From a virus (taxonomy: Duplodnaviria > Heunggongvirae > Uroviricota > Caudoviricetes), in the IMG/VR virus record IMGVR_UViG_2874968258_000011: a stretch of 31,126 nucleotides of DNA, one strand, 5' to 3'. Shown here piece after piece: positions 12,543 to 31,126 of the stretch. Position 1 is the first letter of the stretch. Every line of letters begins with the position of its first letter. Below the pieces are notes generated by a model that was not told where the DNA came from, did not search any database, and saw only the letters and a list, made by a program, of their open reading frames with translations. Made by a program: the position numbers and the translations under genes.

Positions 12543-12617
<75 letters not shown>

Positions 12618-12620
12618 ATA

Positions 12621-12696
<76 letters not shown>

Positions 12697-12698
12697 GC

Positions 12699-12775
12699 TG
12701 GCCCACCACCGAGGACTCGAACCTCGCACCGTCAACTTAGAAGGTTGATGCTCTATCCGGATGAGCTAGTGGTGG
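12699..12775 (-). tRNA. tRNA-Arg (anticodon UCU); unusual C1:G72
   Basis: Acceptor CCACCAC/GTGGTGG, anticodon loop CTTCTAA, T-arm CGAGGTTCGAGTCCTCG, CCA. Confidence 0.75.
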
Positions 12776-12776
12776 T

Positions 12777-12853
12777 TGGTGGCCCTTGCTGGACTTGAAC
12801 CAGCGACCTGGCGATTATGAGTCGCTCGCTCTGACCAACTGAGCTAAAGGGCC
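12777..12853 (-). tRNA. tRNA with CAU anticodon, ileX-like (Ile2/lysidine type; elongator Met not excluded)
   Basis: GGCCCTTTAGCTCAG…GACTCATAATCGCC…GGTTCAAGTCCAGCAAGGGCCACCA. Confidence 0.75.
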
Positions 12854-14873: not shown

Positions 14874-15149
14874 GTGGCTTCTGTTTCTATCAGCTGTCCC
14901 TCCTGTTCAGCTACTGACGGGGTGGTGCGTAACGGCAAAAGCACTGCCGGACATCAGCGCTATCTCTGCTCTCACTGCCGTAAAACATGGCAACTGCAGT
15001 TCACTTACACCGCTTCCCAACCCGGTACGCACCAGAAAATCATTGATATGGCCATGAATGGCGTTGGATGCCGGGCAACTGCACGCATTATGGGCGTTGG
15101 CCTCAACACGATTTTACGTCACTTAAAAAACTCAGGCCGCAGTCGGTAA
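14874..15149 (+). CDS. insA: IS1 InsA
   Basis: 91-aa ORF. Confidence 0.9.
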
Positions 15150-15571
15150 CCTCGCGCATACAGCCGGGCAGTGACGTCATCGTCTGCGCGGAAATGGACG
15201 AACAGTGGGGCTATGTCGGGGCTAAATCGCGCCAGCGCTGGCTGTTTTACGCGTATGACAGTCTCCGGAAGACGGTTGTTGCGCACGTATTCGGTGAACG
15301 CACTATGGCGACGCTGGGGCGTCTTATGAGCCTGCTGTCACCCTTTGACGTGGTGATATGGATGACGGATGGCTGGCCGCTGTATGAATCCCGCCTGAAG
15401 GGAAAGCTGCACGTAATCAGCAAGCGATATACGCAGCGAATTGAGCGGCATAACCTGAATCTGAGGCAGCACCTGGCACGGCTGGGACGGAAGTCGCTGT
15501 CGTTCTCAAAATCGGTGGAGCTGCATGACAAAGTCATCGGGCATTATCTGAACATAAAACACTATCAATAA
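15068..15571 (+). CDS. insB: IS1 InsB
   Basis: 167-aa ORF. Confidence 0.9.
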
Positions 15572-15678: not shown

Positions 15679-15834
15679 TTACTCTCTAGATTCGTAGTCT
15701 ACGAAAACAGCGACCTCCGTCTGGCCGATTCGGATTCGTACCTCGCAGAGGTCTTTCCTCGTTACCAGTGCCGTCACAATGACGGTTAAACAGATGACGA
15801 TCAGGGCGATTAACATCGCCTTTTGCTGCTTCAT
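15679..15834 (-). CDS. hok: Hok/Gef-family type I toxin (51 aa)
   Basis: MKQQKAMLIALIVICLTVIVTALVTRKDLCEVRIRIGQTEVAVFVDYESRE closely resembles Gef/HokC; AGGAG RBS; ORF-track entry 15679..15891 is an upstream extension. Confidence 0.85.
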   Translation of the reverse strand: MKQQKAMLIALIVICLTVIVTALVTRKDLCEVRIRIGQTEVAVFVDYESRE

Positions 15835-16172
15835 AGCCTGCTTCTCCTTGCCTTTCGGCACGTAAGAGGCTAACCTACATTTGTGAGACATAGATTGGGC
15901 CTCAGATTAATGTTAAGCGTCTTGCAGGACGCGTAATGTTAACTGGGGCTTTTCTCTGTCTGCCTTACAGTGACATACCCGAGGCAGACAGCCTCAAGCA
16001 CCCGCAGCAATCTTACCGACACCGATAAGAAAACGCTATTTTTTATTGCCAGCACCATCTATCCAGGCTAGTTTATCTGCGTCAGAACGGCGCAATGCGC
16101 TCGCCTGAGATACGTTTACTTGCCATGGTAACAACAGGTAACGGCAATTGCTGTTTCTGTTTTGTTTCCTTC

Positions 16173-18389: not shown

Positions 18390-18665
18390 GTGGCTTCTGT
18401 TTCTATCAGCTGTCCCTCCTGTTCAGCTACTGACGGGGTGGTGCGTAACGGCAAAAGCACTGCCGGACATCAGCGCTATCTCTGCTCTCACTGCCGTAAA
18501 ACATGGCAACTGCAGTTCACTTACACCGCTTCTCAACCCGGTACGCACCAGAAAATCATTGATATGGCCATGAATGGCGTTGGATGCCGGGCAACTGCAC
18601 GCATTATGGGCGTTGGCCTCAACACGATTTTACGTCACTTAAAAAACTCAGGCCGCAGTCGGTAA
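18390..18665 (+). CDS. insA: IS1 InsA
   Basis: 91-aa ORF. Confidence 0.9.
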
Positions 18666-19087
18666 CCTCGCGCATACAGCCGGGCAGTGACGTCATCGTC
18701 TGCGCGGAAATGGACGAACAGTGGGGCTATGTCGGGGCTAAATCGCGCCAGCGCTGGCTGTTTTACGCGTATGACAGTCTCCGGAAGACGGTTGTTGCGC
18801 ACGTATTCGGTGAACGCACTATGGCGACGCTGGGGCGTCTTATGAGCCTGCTGTCACCCTTTGACGTGGTGATATGGATGACGGATGGCTGGCCGCTGTA
18901 TGAATCCCGCCTGAAGGGAAAGCTGCACGTAATCAGCAAGCGATATACGCAGCGAATTGAGCGGCATAACCTGAATCTGAGGCAGCACCTGGCACGGCTG
19001 GGACGGAAGTCGCTGTCGTTCTCAAAATCGGTGGAGCTGCATGACAAAGTCATCGGGCATTATCTGAACATAAAACACTATCAATAA
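18584..19087 (+). CDS. insB: IS1 InsB
   Basis: 167-aa ORF. Confidence 0.9.
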
Positions 19088-19164: not shown

Positions 19165-19467
19165 ATGAGCAGAAAAACCCAACGTTACTCTAAAGAGTTC
19201 AAAGCCGAAGCTGTCAGAACGGTTCCTGAAAATCAACTTTCGATCAGTGAAGGCGCTTCCCGATTATCTCTTCCTGAAGGCACTTTAGGACAATGGGTTA
19301 CCGCCGCCAGAAAAGGGCTCGGTACTCCTGGTTCCCGCACGGTGGCTGAACTGGAATCTGAAATTCTGCAACTGCGTAAGGCGTTAAATGAAGCTCGCCT
19401 TGAGCGAGATATATTAAAAAAAGCAACAGCGTATTTTGCACAGGAGTCGCTGAAAAATACGCGTTAA
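19165..19467 (+). CDS. IS600 OrfA (P variant)
   Basis: 100-aa ORF. Confidence 0.9.
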   Translation: MSRKTQRYSKEFKAEAVRTVPENQLSISEGASRLSLPEGTLGQWVTAARKGLGTPGSRTVAELESEILQLRKALNEARLERDILKKATAYFAQESLKNTR

Positions 19468-19502
19468 TCGAACAATGGCGACAACAATTTCCCATTGAAG
19501 CG

Positions 19503-20321
19503 ATGTGTCAGGTATTTGGTGTATCCAGGAGCGGTTATTACAACTGGGTACAGCATGAACCCTCAGACAGAAAACAAAGTGATGAGCGGCTAAAACTGGA
19601 GATTAAGGTGGCACATATCCGCACTCGCGAAACATATGGAACCCGGCGGCTCCAGACGGAGCTGGCAGAGAATGGCATCATCGTTGGTCGTGACCGACTG
19701 GCACGTCTTCGTAAGGAGCTAAGGCTACGCTGTAAGCAGAAACGCAAGTTCAGAGCGACTACGAACTCGAACCACAATCTGCCAGTTGCGCCAAATCTGC
19801 TGAACCAGACGTTCGCTCCTACAGCACCAAATCAGGTCTGGGTGGCGGACCTGACGTATGTTGCCACACAGGAGGGATGGTTGTACCTCGCTGGCATCAA
19901 AGATGTTTATACGTGCGAAATTGTCGGCTACGCCATGGGAGAGCGCATGACAAAAGAGCTGACAGGTAAAGCCCTGTTTATGGCGCTCAGGAGCCAGCGC
20001 CCACCTGCCGGGCTAATCCACCACTCTGATCGAGGTTCACAGTACTGCGCATACGATTACCGGGTCATACAGGAGCAGTCTGGTCTGAAAACATCAATGT
20101 CGCGTAAAGGTAACTGTTACGACAACGCTCCGATGGAAAGCTTCTGGGGAACGCTGAAAAATGAGAGCCTGAGCCACTATCGTTTTAATAACCGGGATGA
20201 AGCCATCTCAGTAATACGGGAATACATTGAGATTTTCTACAATCGTCAGCGTCGTCACTCTCGTCTGGGGAATATCTCCCCGGCAGCCTTCAGGGAAAAA
20301 TATCATCAGATGGCTGCTTAA
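19503..20321 (+). CDS. IS600 OrfB
   Basis: 272-aa ORF. Confidence 0.9.
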   Translation: MCQVFGVSRSGYYNWVQHEPSDRKQSDERLKLEIKVAHIRTRETYGTRRLQTELAENGIIVGRDRLARLRKELRLRCKQKRKFRATTNSNHNLPVAPNLLNQTFAPTAPNQVWVADLTYVATQEGWLYLAGIKDVYTCEIVGYAMGERMTKELTGKALFMALRSQRPPAGLIHHSDRGSQYCAYDYRVIQEQSGLKTSMSRKGNCYDNAPMESFWGTLKNESLSHYRFNNRDEAISVIREYIEIFYNRQRRHSRLGNISPAAFREKYHQMAA

Positions 20322-22033: not shown

Positions 22034-22852
22034 TTAAGCAGCCATCTGATGATATTTTTCCCTGAAGGCTGCCGGGGAGATATTCCCCAGACGAGAGTGA
22101 CGACGCTGACGATTGTAGAAAATCTCAATGTATTCCCGTATTACTGAGATGGCTTCATCCCGGTTATTAAAACGATAGTGGCTCAGGCTCTCATTTTTCA
22201 GCGTTCCCCAGAAGCTTTCCATCGGAGCGTTGTCGTAACAGTTACCTTTACGCGACATTGATGTTTTCAGACCAGACTGCTCCTGTATGACCCGGTAATC
22301 GTATGCGCAGTACTGTGAACCTCGATCAGAGTGGTGGATTAGCCCGGCAGGTGGGCGCTGGCTCCTGAGCGCCATAAACAGGGCTTTACCTGTCAGCTCT
22401 TTTGTCATGCGCTCTCCCATGGCGTAGCCGACAATTTCGCACGTATAAACATCTTTGATGCCAGCGAGGTACAACCATCCCTCCTGTGTGGCAACATACG
22501 TCAGGTCCGCCACCCAGACCTGATTTGGTGCTGTAGGAGCGAACGTCTGGTTCAGCAGATTTGGCGCAACTGGCAGATTGTGGTTCGAGTTCGTAGTCGC
22601 TCTGAACTTGCGTTTCTGCTTACAGCGTAGCCTTAGCTCCTTACGAAGACGTGCCAGTCGGTCACGACCAACGATGATGCCATTCTCTGCCAGCTCCGTC
22701 TGGAGCCGCCGGGTTCCATATGTTTCGCGAGTGCGGATATGTGCCACCTTAATCTCCAGTTTTAGCCGCTCATCACTTTGTTTTCTGTCTGAGGGTTCAT
22801 GCTGTACCCAGTTGTAATAACCGCTCCTGGATACACCAAATACCTGACACAT
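22034..22852 (-). CDS. IS600 OrfB
   Basis: 272-aa ORF. Confidence 0.9.
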   Translation of the reverse strand: MCQVFGVSRSGYYNWVQHEPSDRKQSDERLKLEIKVAHIRTRETYGTRRLQTELAENGIIVGRDRLARLRKELRLRCKQKRKFRATTNSNHNLPVAPNLLNQTFAPTAPNQVWVADLTYVATQEGWLYLAGIKDVYTCEIVGYAMGERMTKELTGKALFMALRSQRPPAGLIHHSDRGSQYCAYDYRVIQEQSGLKTSMSRKGNCYDNAPMESFWGTLKNESLSHYRFNNRDEAISVIREYIEIFYNRQRRHSRLGNISPAAFREKYHQMAA

Positions 22853-22887
22853 CGCTTCAATGGGAAATTGTTGTCGCCATTGTTCGA

Positions 22888-23190
22888 TTAACGCGTATTT
22901 TTCAGCGACTCCTGTGCAAAATACGCTGTTGCTTTTTTTAATATATCTCGCTCAAGGCGAGCTTCATTTAACGCCTTACGCAGTTGCAGAATTTCAGATT
23001 CCAGTTCAGCCACCGTGCGGGAACCAGGAGTACCGAGCCCTTTTCTGGCGGCGGTAACCCATTGTCCTAAAGTGCCTTCAGGAAGAGATAATCGGGAAGC
23101 GCCTTCACTGATCGAAAGTTGATTTTCAGGAACCGTTCTGACAGCTTCGGCTTTGAACTCTTTAGAGTAACGTTGGGTTTTTCTGCTCAT
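22888..23190 (-). CDS. IS600 OrfA (P variant)
   Basis: 100-aa ORF. Confidence 0.9.
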   Translation of the reverse strand: MSRKTQRYSKEFKAEAVRTVPENQLSISEGASRLSLPEGTLGQWVTAARKGLGTPGSRTVAELESEILQLRKALNEARLERDILKKATAYFAQESLKNTR

Positions 23191-24738: not shown

Positions 24739-25158
24739 ATGGAAAAAGAAAACGAAAAAATTGCCGCTAGTAGGCTCAATGACAAAATTGCAATGCGTCT
24801 TAAAGAGCGCAGGCAGAAGCTTGGTTTATCTCAAGGAAAACTTGCTGAAATCTGCGGATGGACGCAATCGCGTATAGGTAACTATGAGGCGGGCAGCAGA
24901 AATGTTGGAGTACATGACGCTGTCGTATTGGGAAAGGCACTTGGCATATCTCCTCCTGAGCTCCTCTTTGGAGAACAGGAATCTTCTGAATTGTGGTTAA
25001 ATGAATCCCAACGAAAACTTCTTGAGTTGTTTAACCAGCTACCGGGCTCAGAACAACAACGAATGATTGAGCTATTTGAAGTCCGGCTAAAAGAAATCGA
25101 TGAGTATGTAGAAAAATATTTGAGAGGCAGGATTAAAGATAATCCCCCACCGGAATAA
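24739..25158 (+). CDS. CI-like prophage repressor, HTH-XRE, no recognisable S24 peptidase domain (RacR-like)
   Basis: 139-aa ORF with HTH KLGLSQGKLAEICGWTQSRIGNYE; helical C-terminus. Confidence 0.7.
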   Translation: MEKENEKIAASRLNDKIAMRLKERRQKLGLSQGKLAEICGWTQSRIGNYEAGSRNVGVHDAVVLGKALGISPPELLFGEQESSELWLNESQRKLLELFNQLPGSEQQRMIELFEVRLKEIDEYVEKYLRGRIKDNPPPE

Positions 25159-25662: not shown

Positions 25663-26815
25663 AATAGCTGCGCGGAATAGTAGATCACTTTGAGGGAACT
25701 TAGCCCGGATTGTGCGATCTGATCAATCGCCAAATCAAAACAAATCACCAACCGGACTGAGCAATGCCGATCATAGCACCAATTTCCCGTGACGAACGAC
25801 GCCTGATGCAGAAAGCCATCCATAAAACACACGATAAAAATTATGCCCGCAGACTGACTGCCATGCTGATGCTGCACCGGGGCGACCGTGTCAGCGACGT
25901 TGCCAGAACGCTCTGCTGCGCCCGTTCCTCTGTTGGACGCTGGATTAACTGGTTCACGCAGTCGGGTGTTGAGGGACTGAAATCATTACCTGCCGGGCGT
26001 GCCCGTCGCTGGCCGTTTGAGCATATCTGCACACTGTTACGTGAGCTGGTAAAACATTCTCCCGGCGACTTTGGCTACCAGCGTTCACGCTGGAGTACAG
26101 AACTGCTGGCAATAAAAATCAATGAGATAACCGGTTGCCAGTTAAATGCCGGAACCGTTCGCCGCTGGTTGCCGTCTGCGGGGATTGTGTGGCGAAGGGC
26201 TGCGCCAACTCTGCGTATCCGTGACCCGCATAAAGATGAAAAGATGGCAGCAATCCATAAAGCACTGGACGAATGCAGCGCAGAGCATCCGGTCTTTTAT
26301 GAAGATGAAGTGGATATCCATCTTAATCCCAAAATCGGTGCGGACTGGCAACTGCGCGGACAGCAAAAACGGGTGGTCACGCCGGGACAGAATGAAAAAT
26401 ATTATCTGGCCGGAGCGCTGCACAGCGGGACAGGTAAAGTCAGCTGTGTGGGCGGCAACAGCAAAAGTTCGGCGCTGTTCATCAGCCTGCTGAAGCGGCT
26501 TAAAGCGACATACCGTCGGGCGAAAACCATCACGCTGATCGTGGACAACTACATTATCCACAAAAGCCGGGAAACACAGAGCTGGCTGAAGGAGAACCCG
26601 AAGTTCAGGGTCATTTATCAGCCGGTTTACTCGCCATGGGTGAATCATGTTGAACGGCTATGGCAGGCACTTCACGACACAATAACGCGTAATCATCAGT
26701 GCAGCTCAATGTGGCAACTGTTGAAAAAAGTTCGCCATTTTATGGAAACCGTCAGCCCATTCCCCGGAGGCAAACATGGGCTGGCAAAAGTGTAGCGGTA
26801 TTAAGCGCAGCTATT
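25663..26815 (+). mobile_element. IS630, 1153 bp, TA target duplication
   Basis: Inverted ends AATAGCTGCGC…/…GCGCAGCTATT; TA at 25661-25662 and 26816-26817; 343-aa transposase. Confidence 0.85.
25764..26795 (+). CDS. IS630-family transposase
   Basis: 343-aa ORF with N-terminal HTH and DDE-type C-terminal region. Confidence 0.85.
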   Translation: MPIIAPISRDERRLMQKAIHKTHDKNYARRLTAMLMLHRGDRVSDVARTLCCARSSVGRWINWFTQSGVEGLKSLPAGRARRWPFEHICTLLRELVKHSPGDFGYQRSRWSTELLAIKINEITGCQLNAGTVRRWLPSAGIVWRRAAPTLRIRDPHKDEKMAAIHKALDECSAEHPVFYEDEVDIHLNPKIGADWQLRGQQKRVVTPGQNEKYYLAGALHSGTGKVSCVGGNSKSSALFISLLKRLKATYRRAKTITLIVDNYIIHKSRETQSWLKENPKFRVIYQPVYSPWVNHVERLWQALHDTITRNHQCSSMWQLLKKVRHFMETVSPFPGGKHGLAKV

Positions 26816-26955: not shown

Positions 26956-27246
26956 TCACCGGGTCTTGGCGGGGTATAAATACCATGCGCATTGACTGAA
27001 TTCGCAAACAAAAACAGACGCGCGATACCTGGATAGTCGGTCTGCATAGTCAGATATCTGGCTGCGAATTTGATAAATATCACCGCCCTTTTCGGAAACA
27101 TAAGTTCCGTCCGGGAGTTGATTATACGAACCATCTCCATGGGGGATCGTTCTCCTGAATCCTAGTGAGAGCATATATTTATGAAGCCCTTCGTAATCCT
27201 CTGGCTCAGCATTATATAGTTCTACTCTGGCGAGATACGTTGGCAT
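26956..27246 (-). CDS. Hypothetical protein (96 aa), convergent with and overlapping the 3' end of the IS630-split gene
   Basis: ORF 26956..27252; second ATG has properly spaced AGGA RBS. Confidence 0.4.
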   Translation of the reverse strand: MPTYLARVELYNAEPEDYEGLHKYMLSLGFRRTIPHGDGSYNQLPDGTYVSEKGGDIYQIRSQISDYADRLSRYRASVFVCEFSQCAWYLYPAKTR

Positions 27247-27482
27247 ATTCATTTCCTTACTGGTTGTGTGAGAACTTCAGTAAAGATACCACCAAAGCCC
27301 GGAGGTGGTGAAATAAAACCGGGCACAACACGAAGGCGCATTTCCGGTATCCATAAAGAGTCGGTCTTGTCTGTTAAATTTAAATGGTGGGAGTGCGCCT
27401 CCGGTTGTAAATAACGACATTGCTGTGTGAAGTACCAGTTGGCGGCATCGGTTTAATTGCTGGCTGATGTCCGCCCTTTTTA

Positions 27483-27625
27483 AAGTGAATTTTGTGATGC
27501 GGTGAATGCGGCTCAGCGCACGCGGAACAGTTAAAACAGTAAGGAAAATCCCTTATTCCGGCGTTAATTGTTAACTGGTTAACGTCACCTGGAGGCACCA
27601 GGCACCGCATCAACAAAGTTCACTT
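27483..27625. repeat. Imperfect inverted repeat pair (22/23 nt arms at 27483-27504 and 27603-27625, about 98 bp apart) upstream of Rha-like gene
   Basis: AAGTGAATTTTGTGATGCGGTG versus reverse complement AAGTGAACTTTGTTGATGCGGTG. Confidence 0.6.
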
Positions 27626-27647
27626 CGGTGATGAAAGGAAAGAGAAA

Positions 27648-28493
27648 ATGTTGAATGTAGCTATTGAAAACCAGAACGGGTGGAATTATAGTGCACCTGC
27701 ACCTCATAAAACGGGTGCCGGGATTGCTACCCCGAAGTCATTCACGGCGCATAACCGCGCTCAGGCGGTTTTTTTATGCGTAATGCACAGCCACATTCAA
27801 ATTATGGTGGGGCGTGCGGGGCAGTCGCAAGACTGGCCGGGTTCCGTGATGACCGGTTGTAGCAACCCTGTACGTCTCACCACCCATGAGATTGCTACCT
27901 CCGGTGGTGAGTTAATCAAATTCATCGCGGAGGCTGCCATCATGGCTACTACCCTTTCTCACCCTTGTGTAACCGTAGAAAACGGTCGCGCTGTCACTAC
28001 GTCTGTTGCGGTTGCAGAGTTCTTCCACAAACGACACGACAATGTGTTACGTGCCATCGCAAATATTGAATGCTCAGATAAATTTACTGCCCTCAATTTT
28101 GAAGCGAGCGAATACACCGACTCAATCGGGCGCAAACTCCCAATGTACCAAATCACCAAAAACGGCTTCGTTTTCCTGGTTATGGGCTTCACTGGCAAAA
28201 AAGCCGCTGCATTCAAAGAAGCCTACATTGCTGAGTTCGACCGCATGGAGGCCGAACTGCGCCAGAATAACACCCCACCTGCTGACAAGATGATTCCGGG
28301 TGATGGTCGCACTCTGGTTGTTCACTTCGACAAATTCGGCAATGTCGAATTCACCGAAACCGTTCCTGATGGCGCACTGGTCTGTACCCTGGAGACTTTC
28401 CGGTTTTATCTGGAAAAACAGGGATGGACTCTTGTTAACCGGGGCGCAATTAAAAATATGACTGTGGAACAATTACTCAAAATTCATTGTTGA
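27648..28493 (+). CDS. Rha-family phage regulatory protein / antirepressor-like; alternative internal start at 27942
   Basis: Rha-like segment VTVENGRAVTTSVAVAEFFHKRHDNVLRAI begins near residue 105; both 27648 and 27942 ATGs have RBS. Confidence 0.5.
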   Translation: MLNVAIENQNGWNYSAPAPHKTGAGIATPKSFTAHNRAQAVFLCVMHSHIQIMVGRAGQSQDWPGSVMTGCSNPVRLTTHEIATSGGELIKFIAEAAIMATTLSHPCVTVENGRAVTTSVAVAEFFHKRHDNVLRAIANIECSDKFTALNFEASEYTDSIGRKLPMYQITKNGFVFLVMGFTGKKAAAFKEAYIAEFDRMEAELRQNNTPPADKMIPGDGRTLVVHFDKFGNVEFTETVPDGALVCTLETFRFYLEKQGWTLVNRGAIKNMTVEQLLKIHC

Positions 28494-28503
28494 GGACGCA
28501 ATA

Positions 28504-28692
28504 ATGGAGACGTTATTACCAAACGTTAATACGTCTGAAGGTTGTTTTGAAATTGGTGTCACTATCAGTAACCCTGTATTTACTGAAGATGCCATTAACA
28601 AGAGAAAACACGAACGGGAGCTATTAAATAAAATATGCATTGTTTCAATGCTGGCTCGTTTACGTCTGATGCCAAAAGGATGTGCACAATGA
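28504..28692 (+). CDS. Hypothetical small protein (62 aa)
   Basis: GAGGA RBS; stop overlaps next start (ATGA). Confidence 0.4.
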   Translation: METLLPNVNTSEGCFEIGVTISNPVFTEDAINKRKHERELLNKICIVSMLARLRLMPKGCAQ

Positions 28693-28880
28693 ATACAGTA
28701 TTTGCACTCGTTCTGACGGTTTTTCTTGTTTCCGGTGAACCGGTTGACATGGTTACTGGCGTATACAGCTCAATGAAAGAATGTATGACTGCCGCAGCGA
28801 AACAGAAAATTCCCGGTGACTGTTATCCGGTCGATAAAGTTATTCACCATGATAATAACGAAATCCCGGCAGGTCTTTAA
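28689..28880 (+). CDS. Hypothetical small exported protein (63 aa, N-terminal signal-like segment, two Cys)
   Basis: MNTVFALVLTVFLVSG… from internal ATG with AAGGA RBS; coupled to upstream ORF. Confidence 0.4.
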   Translation: MNTVFALVLTVFLVSGEPVDMVTGVYSSMKECMTAAAKQKIPGDCYPVDKVIHHDNNEIPAGL

Positions 28881-28964
28881 AACAGTTCCGTAATAAATAT
28901 CCGGTTTCATTCTTATATGCCAGCAATGGCAGGGGTTCGCTCAACCTTAATTAAGGAGAAAAAC

Positions 28965-29240
28965 ATGATTACCAGTTATGAAGCCACTGTTGTAACTACT
29001 GATGACATTGTTCACGAGGTTAATCTGGAAGGAAAGCGTATTGGCTACGTGATTAAGACAGAAAATAAAGAAACCCCATTCACTGTGGTTGATATCGACG
29101 GTCCATCAGGCAACGTTAAAACACTTAACGATGGTGTAAAAAAAATGTGTCTGGTGCACATAGGAAAGAATCTGCCCGCAGAAAAAAAAGCCGAATTTCT
29201 GGCAACTCTGATTGCAATGAAATTAAAAGGTGAAATCTGA
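28965..29240 (+). CDS. Hypothetical protein (91 aa)
   Basis: AAGGAGAAAAAC-ATG RBS; followed by 7-bp stem hairpin 29251-29269. Confidence 0.4.
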   Translation: MITSYEATVVTTDDIVHEVNLEGKRIGYVIKTENKETPFTVVDIDGPSGNVKTLNDGVKKMCLVHIGKNLPAEKKAEFLATLIAMKLKGEI

Positions 29241-29435
29241 AAAAAAGAAAGCCTGCACACTGTGCAGGCCTGAGTGAAGAACCTGGGACATTTATTCATC
29301 ACTCGCAGTAATTTTAATCTGAGTTGAGGTTAAAAAACAATGAGCACCGATAAACAAGTTTACCCACTGTATGAGGTAGCCTGAGTTTAACGGACACTCC
29401 TTCCTGAAATAGAATGGCATCAGAAGGAGCTAATA

Positions 29436-29738
29436 ATGAGCAGAAAAACCCAACGTTACTCTAAAGAGTTCAAAGCCGAAGCTGTCAGAACGGTTCCTGA
29501 AAATCAACTTTCGATCAGTGAAGGCGCTTCCCGATTATCTCTTCCTGAAGGCACTTTAGGACAATGGGTTACCGCCGCCAGAAAAGGGCTCGGTACTCCT
29601 GGTTCCCGCACGGTGGCTGAACTGGAATCTGAAATTCTGCAACTGCGTAAGGCGTTAAATGAAGCTCGCCTTGAGCGAGATATATTAAAAAAAGCAACAG
29701 CGTATTTTGCACAGGAGTCGCTGAAAAATACGCGTTAA
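29436..29738 (+). CDS. IS600 OrfA (P variant)
   Basis: 100-aa ORF. Confidence 0.9.
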   Translation: MSRKTQRYSKEFKAEAVRTVPENQLSISEGASRLSLPEGTLGQWVTAARKGLGTPGSRTVAELESEILQLRKALNEARLERDILKKATAYFAQESLKNTR

Positions 29739-29773
29739 TCGAACAATGGCGACAACAATTTCCCATTGAAGCG

Positions 29774-30592
29774 ATGTGTCAGGTATTTGGTGTATCCAGG
29801 AGCGGTTATTACAACTGGGTACAGCATGAACCCTCAGACAGAAAACAAAGTGATGAGCGGCTAAAACTGGAGATTAAGGTGGCACATATCCGCACTCGCG
29901 AAACATATGGAACCCGGCGGCTCCAGACGGAGCTGGCAGAGAATGGCATCATCGTTGGTCGTGACCGACTGGCACGTCTTCGTAAGGAGCTAAGGCTACG
30001 CTGTAAGCAGAAACGCAAGTTCAGAGCGACTACGAACTCGAACCACAATCTGCCAGTTGCGCCAAATCTGCTGAACCAGACGTTCACTCCTACAGCACCA
30101 AATCAGGTCTGGGTGGCGGACCTGACGTATGTTGCCACACAGGAGGGATGGTTGTACCTCGCTGGCATCAAAGATGTTTATACGTGCGAAATTGTCGGCT
30201 ACGCCATGGGAGAGCGCATGACAAAAGAGCTGACAGGTAAAGCCCTGTTTATGGCGCTCAGGAGCCAGCGCCCACCTGCCGGGCTAATCCACCACTCTGA
30301 TCGAGGTTCACAGTACTGCGCATACGATTACCGGGTCATACAGGAGCAGTCTGGTCTGAAAACATCAATGTCGCGTAAAGGTAACTGTTACGACAACGCT
30401 CCGATGGAAAGCTTCTGGGGAACGCTGAAAAATGAGAGCCTGAGCCACTATCGTTTTAATAACCGGGATGAAGCCATCTCAGTAATACGGGAATACATTG
30501 AGATTTTCTACAATCGTCAGCGTCGTCACTCTCGTCTGGGGAATATCTCCCCGGCAGCCTTCAGGGAAAAATATCATCAGATGGCTGCTTAA
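29774..30592 (+). CDS. IS600 OrfB
   Basis: 272-aa ORF. Confidence 0.9.
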   Translation: MCQVFGVSRSGYYNWVQHEPSDRKQSDERLKLEIKVAHIRTRETYGTRRLQTELAENGIIVGRDRLARLRKELRLRCKQKRKFRATTNSNHNLPVAPNLLNQTFTPTAPNQVWVADLTYVATQEGWLYLAGIKDVYTCEIVGYAMGERMTKELTGKALFMALRSQRPPAGLIHHSDRGSQYCAYDYRVIQEQSGLKTSMSRKGNCYDNAPMESFWGTLKNESLSHYRFNNRDEAISVIREYIEIFYNRQRRHSRLGNISPAAFREKYHQMAA

Positions 30593-30635
30593 AAAAAGAA
30601 CAAATGGTAGTGTCCGCTATTGCCAGTACACCTCA

Positions 30636-31126
30636 TTGTGAATGTCAGAAGAAACCTGACGATACTTGATATGTTCGGTCCCCCAAAAACAAATGCCGGG
30701 ATCCGGACGGTAACATTACTGCAGCCGGCTCTTGAAGCACTGAAGGAGCAATACAAACTGACCGGGCATCATCGCAAAAGCGAAATCACTTTTTATCATC
30801 GGGAGTACGGCAGAACTGAAAAGCAAAAACTGCATTTTGTTTTCATGCCCAGGGTGTGTAACGAAAAACAGAAACCTTATTACTCGGTAAGCAGTTTGGG
30901 TGCAAGATGGAATGCAGCAGTAAAACGTGCTGGTATTCGCCGCCGTAATCCGTACCATACGCGACATACTTTTGCCTGCTGGCTGTTGACGGCAGGAGCG
31001 AACCCGGCATTTATAGCCAGCCAGATGGGGCATGAAACTGCGCAAATGGTGTATGAAATTTACGGTATGTGGATTGATGACATGAACGACGAACAGATAG
31101 CCATGTTGAATGCGCGGTTATCGTAG
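30636..31126 (+). pseudogene. Tyrosine integrase, C-terminal catalytic fragment (~164 codons)
   Basis: …YHTRHTFACWLL…GHETAQMVYEIYGMW contains the H-x-x-R and terminal Tyr region of tyrosine recombinases; begins at IS600 boundary, no start codon of its own. Confidence 0.7.

Follow-up and report, generated by a model that had tools for sequence, protein, structure and literature searches.

Organisation of the locus

Downstream of an Ash-Rha gene, the plus strand of the analysed DNA (31,126 nucleotides, in the following referred to as the window) carries three short open reading frames (ORFs), which were assigned to dicB, to a homologue of ydfD and to racC. They are followed by a hairpin, the start of a recE-type exonuclease gene, an IS600 element and part of an integrase gene (Table 1). 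Together with the upstream region, the order is HTH repressor - DUF1391 gene - dicF-like RNA - isrK/C4 - Ash-Rha - dicB - ydfD - racC - recE' - (IS600) - 'int.

Table 1. Features of the prophage region in the window and the evidence on which they are based.
Feature	Position	Strand	Evidence or remark
HTH repressor	24739-25158	+	Faces a Cro-like HTH gene and a YdaT gene on the opposite strand (Pfam)
DUF1391 (ydfA/ydaF-type) gene	Between HTH repressor and IS630-family transposase		Pfam
Inserted IS630-family transposase	25764-26795		Pfam
Divergent dicF-like RNA with terminator	27426-27481		28.6 bits, below Rfam cut-off
Ash + Rha ORF, antirepressor-like, orf45-anrP-type, 281 aa	27648-28493	+	PF10554, PF09669
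Promoter-like site	27664-27692		Consensus match; isrK terminator downstream
isrK RNA	27699-27775		Rfam, 64.8 bits; within 5' part of Ash + Rha ORF
C4 antisense RNA	27800-27887		Rfam, 79 bits; within 5' part of Ash + Rha ORF
dicB, predicted 62-aa cell-division inhibitor DicB	28504-28692	+	PF05358, NF049927, K-12 identity, dN/dS, Shine-Dalgarno sequence
ydfD homologue (DUF1482 family), predicted 63-aa lysis protein	28689-28880	+	PF07358, phrog_1092, K-12 YdfD, dN/dS
Conserved 35-nt linker, ydfD-racC spacer, mosaic joint	28916-28950	+	Spacer comparison, break of phage matches
racC, predicted 91-aa RacC, reported blocker of retron toxin RcaT	28965-29240	+	PRK09790, phrog_4778, K-12 RacC, dN/dS
Conserved hairpin, racC-recE intergenic	29251-29269		Folding, terminator scan, 20 variants
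recE-type exonuclease start, 10 codons (MSTDKQVYPL...), IS600-truncated	29340-29371	+	Alignment of relatives
IS600 orfAB	29436-30592		Cuts recE-type gene at about 29372
Tyrosine integrase, C-terminal part	30620-31126

As stated in a preliminary description of the locus, the three ORFs behind the Rha-like gene, which are all intact, possess good ribosome-binding sites. These are GAGGA, 7 nt upstream of the first start codon, the Shine-Dalgarno-like AAAGGA in front of the second, and AAGGAG, 6 nt before the third; all of them lie 6-8 nt from the respective ATG. The overlap of the first two ORFs by the tetranucleotide ATGA was likewise found (28689-28692). It is kept in 83/83 related loci and in Escherichia coli K-12, and dicB and ydfD are translationally coupled. 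Within the block, coupling is limited to this pair. The third ORF, which had been described as linked as well, begins 84 nt downstream of the second and has its own Shine-Dalgarno sequence; therefore, it is not translationally linked. Longer forms of the second (ATG 28635, 81 aa) and of the third ORF (ATG 28917, 107 aa) were rejected, since neither start is preceded by a Shine-Dalgarno sequence and both the family models and the K-12 annotation begin at the shorter form.

The Shine-Dalgarno sequence and the ATG of the recE-type gene are conserved in an alignment with two related loci (L003 and L002) and the Rac prophage of K-12, and the remnant is identical to the exonuclease start of L003 up to the end of IS600. 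racC lies directly upstream of this remnant, as it does in the relatives which extend that far. In intact relatives, an Exonuc_VIII gene of 636-646 aa occupies the recE position, and the operon goes on with Exonuc_VIII - Gam - AAA_24 - DUF1187 - xis - intR, adjoining ttcA. In two further loci, L170 (CP044191.1) and L171 (AKNC01000063.1), IS630 and IS600 are arranged as in the window. Because of this layout, and because the protein of the second ORF bears the name '[Shigella]' in the database, the region is almost certainly an IS-riddled, defective copy of a Rac/Qin-type lambdoid prophage adjoining ttcA in Shigella.

Identification of the three genes

The length of the three ORFs alone lies within the range of chance, as a 4.6-kb stretch here is overlapped, counting all frames, by 54 ORFs of 30 aa or more. 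Their coding status is derived from matches to protein families and from purifying selection, for which about 160 related loci were gathered from viral contigs. In the preliminary description, none of the genes was recognisable; profile searches, however, matched all three over their full length to curated families above the cut-offs.

The first ORF matched the Pfam family PF05358 with 135.8 bits (cut-off 27), covering residues 1-62 of 62, and the NCBIfam model NF049927 with 134.6 bits (cut-off 100). It shares 60 of 62 residues (97%) with DicB of E. coli K-12 (b1575), the two changes being K2E and Q36H. Among 71 full-length copies from related loci, which represent 23 distinct alleles, a dN/dS ratio of 0.36 was obtained, with 17/21/31 variable sites at codon positions 1/2/3. 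The gene is situated in the repressor-controlled early operon of a lambdoid prophage with ydfD as its neighbour, and these features identify it, at the level of sequence, as dicB. In K-12, DicB interacts with MinC and prevents formation of the Z-ring; via MinC it also inhibits ManYZ, by which the resistance of the cells to lambda and further phages that depend on ManYZ rises about 100-fold (PMC6832061). If overproduced, DicB is itself toxic (PMC10448788). With an identity of 97%, there are strong grounds to expect the same function for the allele of the window.

For the second ORF, 80.6 bits were obtained with PF07358 (cut-off 25; residues 4-61) and an E-value of 1.4e-36 with phrog_1092. It is identical to K-12 YdfD (b1576, annotated as 'lysis protein') in 75% of the residues over the full length, and its exact sequence is deposited at NCBI as 'DUF1482 family protein [Shigella]'. 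The traits of YdfD and the DUF1482 family, i.e. a length of 63-67 aa, a hydrophobic N-terminal segment, two cysteines and the overlap with dicB, are all present, so that the ORF is to be classified as a ydfD-family gene. The 83 full-length copies of the related loci (25 distinct alleles) gave a dN/dS ratio of 0.26 and 21/15/34 variable sites per codon position. K-12 YdfD binds and inhibits IspG, an enzyme of the MEP pathway, its overexpression leads to rapid lysis, and overexpression of ispG or the product of IspG rescues the cells (PMC8835842). Lysis depends on cell division and is prevented by co-expression of DicB or SulA (Masuda 2016, as cited in PMC8835842). Inhibition of IspG by the homologue of the window might be extrapolated from the K-12 protein, with less weight at 75% identity than in the case of DicB.

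The third ORF was matched by PRK09790 (NCBIfam, 204.2 bits, cut-off 171) and phrog_4778 (8.9e-61), its database matches bear the name 'protein RacC', and 88 of 91 residues (97%) correspond to K-12 RacC (b1351). It can be assigned to racC on this basis. In the related loci, 84 full-length copies comprising 22 distinct alleles showed the lowest dN/dS ratio of the three genes (0.10); 35 of the 50 variable sites lie at the third codon position (7/8/35). In a genome-wide screen, K-12 RacC was the strongest blocker of RcaT, the toxin of retron-Sen2, and it also blocked RcaT-Eco9; RecE triggers the RcaT retron by degradation of msDNA, and racC-recE was called a linked blocker-trigger pair by the authors, who presumed a direct binding of RacC to RcaT (bioRxiv 10.1101/2020.06.22.160242). 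As for DicB, the identity of 97% argues strongly for the same function of the window allele.

The RacC family is tiny and offers no remote homologues to exploit: an exhaustive search of 1.8 billion representatives yielded 22, among which identity over the full length goes down to 42%. A match of the single RacC sequence to PDB entry 6xi1 ('Flagellin hook IN motif family', E 1.6e-5), in which no stretch was significant alone, was gone when a profile was used. It resembles the matches of RacC to long repetitive proteins in the search of 1.8 billion representatives and was judged an artefact of composition or repeats. In two of the related loci (L009 and L010), racC appears as two overlapping partial matches, which resembles a frameshift, and in L002 a frameshifted hypothetical gene lies at the racC match right before recE.

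Thus, dicB, ydfD and racC are under purifying selection. The region 27600-29400, which includes the block, has matches in 4613 of 5426 complete E. coli genomes. Conservation and a coding signal, on which the preliminary description had made its reading depend, are both present: the block occurs in thousands of E. coli genomes, and dN/dS ranges from 0.10 to 0.36. The defence-system models of PADLOC matched neither the three proteins nor Rha nor a 98-aa ORF on the minus strand, and Rfam, searched at permissive thresholds over 27300-29400, gave no match inside the three genes.

The N-terminus of the YdfD homologue

The hydrophobic start and the two cysteines which had been described for the middle ORF are real. 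Its N-terminus contains a run of 11 hydrophobic residues (V4-V14, mean Kyte-Doolittle value 3.17), and Cys32 and Cys45 showed no variation across an alignment of 17 sequences. This core is of signal-like length, and the motif V-S-G/E, in which the slash marks a possible cleavage site, might fit. The further claim of a signal peptide is not supported. A basic n-region is lacking, as MNT directly precedes the hydrophobic run and the first lysine or arginine is residue 30. Furthermore, residues 7-20 are among the least variable positions of the protein, and IspG, its reported target, is cytoplasmic. For these reasons, a cleavable signal peptide, while conceivable, is unsupported, and the segment is better read as a hydrophobic domain which is conserved in this lysis protein with the reported target IspG. 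[quoted passage not shown] The AF2 model of the YdfD homologue (pLDDT 59) is uninformative with regard to topology and pairing of the cysteines. In the K-12 protein, the N-terminal 28 residues (1-28) are the part reported as binding IspG (PMC8835842).

Mosaic structure of the block

The spacer between ydfD and racC contains a segment, TATGCCAGCAATGGCAGG..TTCGCTCAACCTTAA, which is common to the ydfD-ydfE spacer of Qin, the ydaE-racC spacer of Rac and the corresponding spacers of two related loci (L001 and L003), whereas the flanks differ. Within the phage collection, the matches have their breakpoints at query positions 471 and 437, corresponding to 28950 and 28916 of the window. Phages with dicB-ydfD such as Tritos and mEp460 matched query positions 1-471, and phages of the Rac-SA53 type, which carry racC-recE, matched positions 437-866. 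The segment is shared between differing flanks, the matches split exactly there, and the linker is the recombination joint of a mosaic. The block represents a dicB-ydfD cassette of the Qin type joined at this linker to a racC-recE module of the Rac type. It is conceivable, though unlikely, that the linker itself functions as a signal for processing or recombination which the alternative cassettes have in common.

A comparison of about 170 related loci shows this modular arrangement as well: the slot which follows Rha is filled by KilR-YdaE (Rac type) in about 77 and by DicB-YdfD (Qin type) in about 85 of them. DicB and YdfD are adjacent without exception, and RacC is followed by RecE/Exo in every locus that extends that far. 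The order Rha > DicB > YdfD > RacC (> Exo) was found in L008, L009 and L010 and recurs in L168-L171; DicB > YdfD > RacC > RecE is present in L037.

Three known systems resemble the region. The dicBF operon of Qin (b1575, b1576) shares with the window the order dicB-ydfD, the ATGA overlap and the highly similar proteins DicB and YdfD, and in both cases a dicF-like RNA, a DicA-type HTH repressor and a DUF1391 (ydfA-type) gene are located upstream. In contrast to Qin, the window contains an Ash-Rha module of the isrK/C4/anrP type between the dicF-like RNA and dicB, its dicF-like RNA is divergent, and the downstream gene is racC instead of ydfE. The racC-recE region of K-12 Rac (b1351, b1350) is similar in RacC, in the intergenic hairpin, in the Shine-Dalgarno and ATG context of recE and in the intR-type integrase adjoining ttcA. 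It differs in that kilR-ydaE and not dicB-ydfD lies upstream of racC, and in the N-terminus of the exonuclease, which is of the 'MSTDKQ' type in the window, where it is cut after 10 codons, and 'MSTKPL' in K-12. The third system is isrK-orf45-anrP of Salmonella Gifsy-1, which is related to the c4 immunity RNA of P1. In the window, Rfam matched isrK and C4 over their full length, a Rha/antirepressor ORF is present too, and a promoter-like site closely precedes isrK. The last element of the Gifsy-1 unit is isrJ, whereas the unit of the window runs straight into dicB. This part is merely the upstream neighbour of the three genes. A fusion of orf45 and anrP was noted in S. dysenteriae when isrK-orf45-anrP was described (PMC4825925).

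The hairpin between racC and recE

According to the preliminary description, the block ends at a hairpin with a perfect stem of 7 bp. The inverted repeat GCCTGCA/TGCAGGC is indeed present (29251-29257 and 29263-29269), and the stem in fact comprises 8 bp with a loop of 3 nt. On the plus strand, the folding energy is -14.2 kcal/mol (z = -3.1; 1 of 200 shuffled sequences was as good), and on the minus strand -16 kcal/mol. The structure occurs in all 20 distinct variants of the racC-recE intergenic region (84 loci). The stem occurs in two haplotypes, GCCTGCA...TGCAGGC (window) and GCCTGCG...CGCAGGC (K-12 Rac), which are related by one compensatory change of the seventh base pair (A-T in the window, G-C in K-12). 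The loops vary (ACT/AGT, TATGG/TATGA/TATGT), and the flanks are divergent.

This conserved intergenic structure does not mark the end of the operon but lies inside it, since the recE-type ATG at 29340 follows 70 nt past the hairpin and the gene continues in intact relatives. As expected for an intrinsic terminator, the hairpin has a stem-loop rich in G+C; a U-tract 3' of it is, however, absent on the sense strand, where the tail reads CUGAGUGAAG. The terminator scan called the hairpin on the minus strand only, antisense to racC, with the tail TCTTTTTTTC in the window; in L003 and K-12, too, it was called on the antisense strand only, and the T-run lies on that strand. One conceivable role of the hairpin is to terminate an unannotated RNA that runs antisense to the 5' region of recE. 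Scans of L003 and K-12 revealed no consensus promoter antisense to recE, which leaves this idea unsupported. A weak OmrA-B-like Rfam match over the hairpin on the minus strand (E 0.25, permissive thresholds) probably reflects a resemblance between terminators. Alternatively, the hairpin could act on the sense strand as a 3'-end, attenuating or stabilising structure, by which RacC, the blocker, would be kept above RecE, the trigger. A regulatory role of either kind, as opposed to a passive structure, is considered unlikely.

Interpretation of the block

Taken together, it is highly probable (about 0.93) that dicB, ydfD (DUF1482) and racC are named small genes of an early-left, repressor-controlled operon of a Rac/Qin-type lambdoid prophage. 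In K-12, DicA represses the dicBF operon, the transcript of which is polycistronic, and a ydfABC-dicFB-ydfD species was detected (PMC10448788). Upon derepression, or by read-through from the isrK promoter, such an operon would stop division of the host. The same early operon (dicB-ydfD-racC-recE) might counter an abortive-infection defence and start recombination: RacC would neutralise the RcaT that is freed when RecE degrades msDNA, so that racC-recE would function as a blocker-trigger pair. In the window, the upstream insertion of the IS630-family element and the cut of recE by IS600 may have left just the small genes intact. Whether the block is expressed in this decayed prophage is uncertain, because the IS630-family element lies between the block and the repressor-proximal promoter and because the sole nearby promoter-like site is a consensus match which is followed by the isrK terminator.

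A narrower reading treats dicB-ydfD as a toxin/antidote-like pair, in which coupling fixes the ratio of DicB to YdfD so that lysis would occur only when division resumes, and to which racC is unrelated. The strict adjacency of the two genes and the invariable ATGA overlap fit this idea, as does the reported prevention of YdfD-dependent lysis by DicB or SulA, and the same slot is filled by KilR-YdaE, a pair which also starts with a division inhibitor. Overproduced DicB is toxic, as mentioned above, and hence no classical antitoxin; in addition, neither a difference in stability nor an addiction phenotype is known. This reading, which is compatible with the early operon and does not exclude it, is possible although rather improbable.

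The position of the genes had also been taken as that of lysogenic-conversion or exclusion genes. This applies insofar as they are small, non-structural early-left genes, placed between those for immunity/antirepression and those for recombination/integration, and are directed at the host or at competing elements: DicB excludes lambda-like phages which use ManYZ for entry, and RacC counters a retron defence toxin. It is very improbable, on the other hand, that the block is an autonomous moron, i.e. a self-contained conversion cassette with its own promoter and terminator, which is active in the repressed prophage and encodes a secreted effector of 63 aa. The phage exclusion conferred by DicB (PMC6832061), the hydrophobic N-terminus of the second ORF with its possible cleavage motif and the strong hairpin after the third would be in line with such a cassette. 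However, a scan of the plus strand revealed no promoter-like site from 27693 to 29386, a region which includes the block (28504-29269), and just 10 nt separate the stop codon of Rha from the start of dicB. The hairpin lacks a U-tract on the sense strand and is followed by the conserved recE start, and the K-12 orthologues are part of one polycistronic RNA from the DicA-repressed dicB promoter (PMC10448788). The putative effector has no basic n-region, and its reported target is the cytoplasmic IspG.

The heavy disruption by IS elements and the abundance of short ORFs in every frame might suggest that these are random reading frames or degraded pseudogenes of a dead prophage. At the level of sequence, this reading is refuted. 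None of the three ORFs is shortened, their start and stop codons are intact, they agree completely or almost completely with functional K-12 alleles, and they belong to families with the low dN/dS ratios given above, in contrast to the frameshift-like racC of L009 and L010 and the frameshifted gene of L002.

Significance for the prophage family

The three genes, dicB, a ydfD homologue and racC, were already known, and the finding is real yet ordinary. For two of the named genes the function is well studied, and for the third a phenotype has been published, so that little is added in this respect. The outcome is mainly one of correction: the block forms a section of an early operon already known from prophages and not an unknown conversion cassette. 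The role of the racC-recE hairpin is the sole part of the finding without an existing explanation. Beside this, small host-directed genes remain intact in a Shigella-type prophage which is otherwise dismantled by IS elements. Both this and the modular exchange at a short conserved linker, in which the racC-recE blocker-trigger pair and a cassette with a division inhibitor (dicB-ydfD or kilR-ydaE) are swapped, may be of interest to prophage biologists.

Linker and start of racC

The short sequence between the ydfD homologue and racC (table) includes a small hairpin (GCCA-GCAA-TGGC) and is common to four different cassette junctions, and the phage-database matches stop or start at this position. 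The linker appears to be a recombination site at a module boundary; a role in RNA processing might come in addition. In several database entries (proteins P0001-P0004), RacC is given as a protein of 107 aa starting at the upstream ATG 28917 (28917-29240, +). This ATG is located inside the conserved linker and is not preceded by a Shine-Dalgarno sequence; there is better support for the shorter product of 91 aa that is annotated in K-12.

The hairpin between racC and the remnant of recE is terminator-like on the antisense strand only, and this orientation is kept in the Rac prophage of K-12 and in the related locus L003. No promoter was found for it on the antisense strand.

Small RNAs upstream of dicB

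Both isrK and the C4 antisense RNA lie in that half of the 281-aa Ash-Rha ORF which codes for the Ash domain. This layout is similar in appearance to the isrK-orf45-anrP switch of Gifsy-1, with a fusion of orf45 to anrP of the kind reported for S. dysenteriae (PMC4825925). The dicF-like RNA matched the Rfam DicF model with 28.6 bits (E 0.0012), which is under the cut-off of 48 bits. Compared to dicF of K-12 its 3' flank is identical, whereas the 5' seed region is different. The STnc100-like match is flanked by this RNA on one side and the isrK promoter on the other. At an approximately equivalent position, immediately 5' of Rha, the annotation of the relative L003 has a fragment of a DicB pseudogene.

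Further features of the window
Feature	Position	Strand	Remark
IS600 copies and IS630-family transposase	29372-30620, 25764-26795, 19165-20321, 22034-23190 (-), about 9845
Four tRNA genes	12546-12853	-	cluster elsewhere in prophage
Putative IS1 ORF pairs	14874-15571, 18390-19087		91 + 167 aa
sok antitoxin RNA	15829-16003	-	full-length, 118 bits
98-aa ORF	26956-27252	-	between IS630-family element and dicF-like RNA
dicF-like small RNA	27426-27481	+	divergent; Rfam DicF match, own stem-loop and T-run
STnc100-like RNA match	27488-27617	+	33.7 bits vs 47, sub-threshold
Promoter-like site, isrK and C4	27664-27887	+	promoter-like site TTGAAA-17-TATAGT, followed by the two RNAs
c4-a1b1 target-like match	27686-27738		sub-threshold
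isrK	27699-27775	+	full-length Rfam match, terminator
C4 antisense RNA	27800-27887	+	full-length Rfam match
Conserved linker	28916-28950	+	35 nt, TATGCCAGCAATGGCAGGGGTTCGCTCAACCTTAA
racC-recE hairpin	29244-29271	-	terminator-like, tail TCTTTTTTTC

Insertion sequences and other genes

Several copies of IS600 are present, each with the same pair of ORFs (100 aa and 272 aa). One copy interrupts recE past codon 10 and adjoins an integrase fragment; therefore, recE, gam and xis were lost, together with the 5' part of int. Two further ORF pairs look like IS1. The full-length sok RNA implies a toxin locus of the hok/sok type in the prophage. For the 98-aa ORF, no match was obtained in Pfam or PADLOC; L001 and L003 possess hypothetical genes of 91-92 aa on the opposite strand at roughly its position 5' of Rha.

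Cassette exchange

Among the related loci, the slot between Rha and RacC or the exonuclease is occupied by either kilR-ydaE or dicB-ydfD (L087-L165 and L005, the K-12 Rac prophage, compared with L007-L086). In both cassettes the division inhibitor comes first, and the next gene, which overlaps or abuts it, encodes a small protein of 56-95 aa; this suggests that YdaE and YdfD may have analogous roles.
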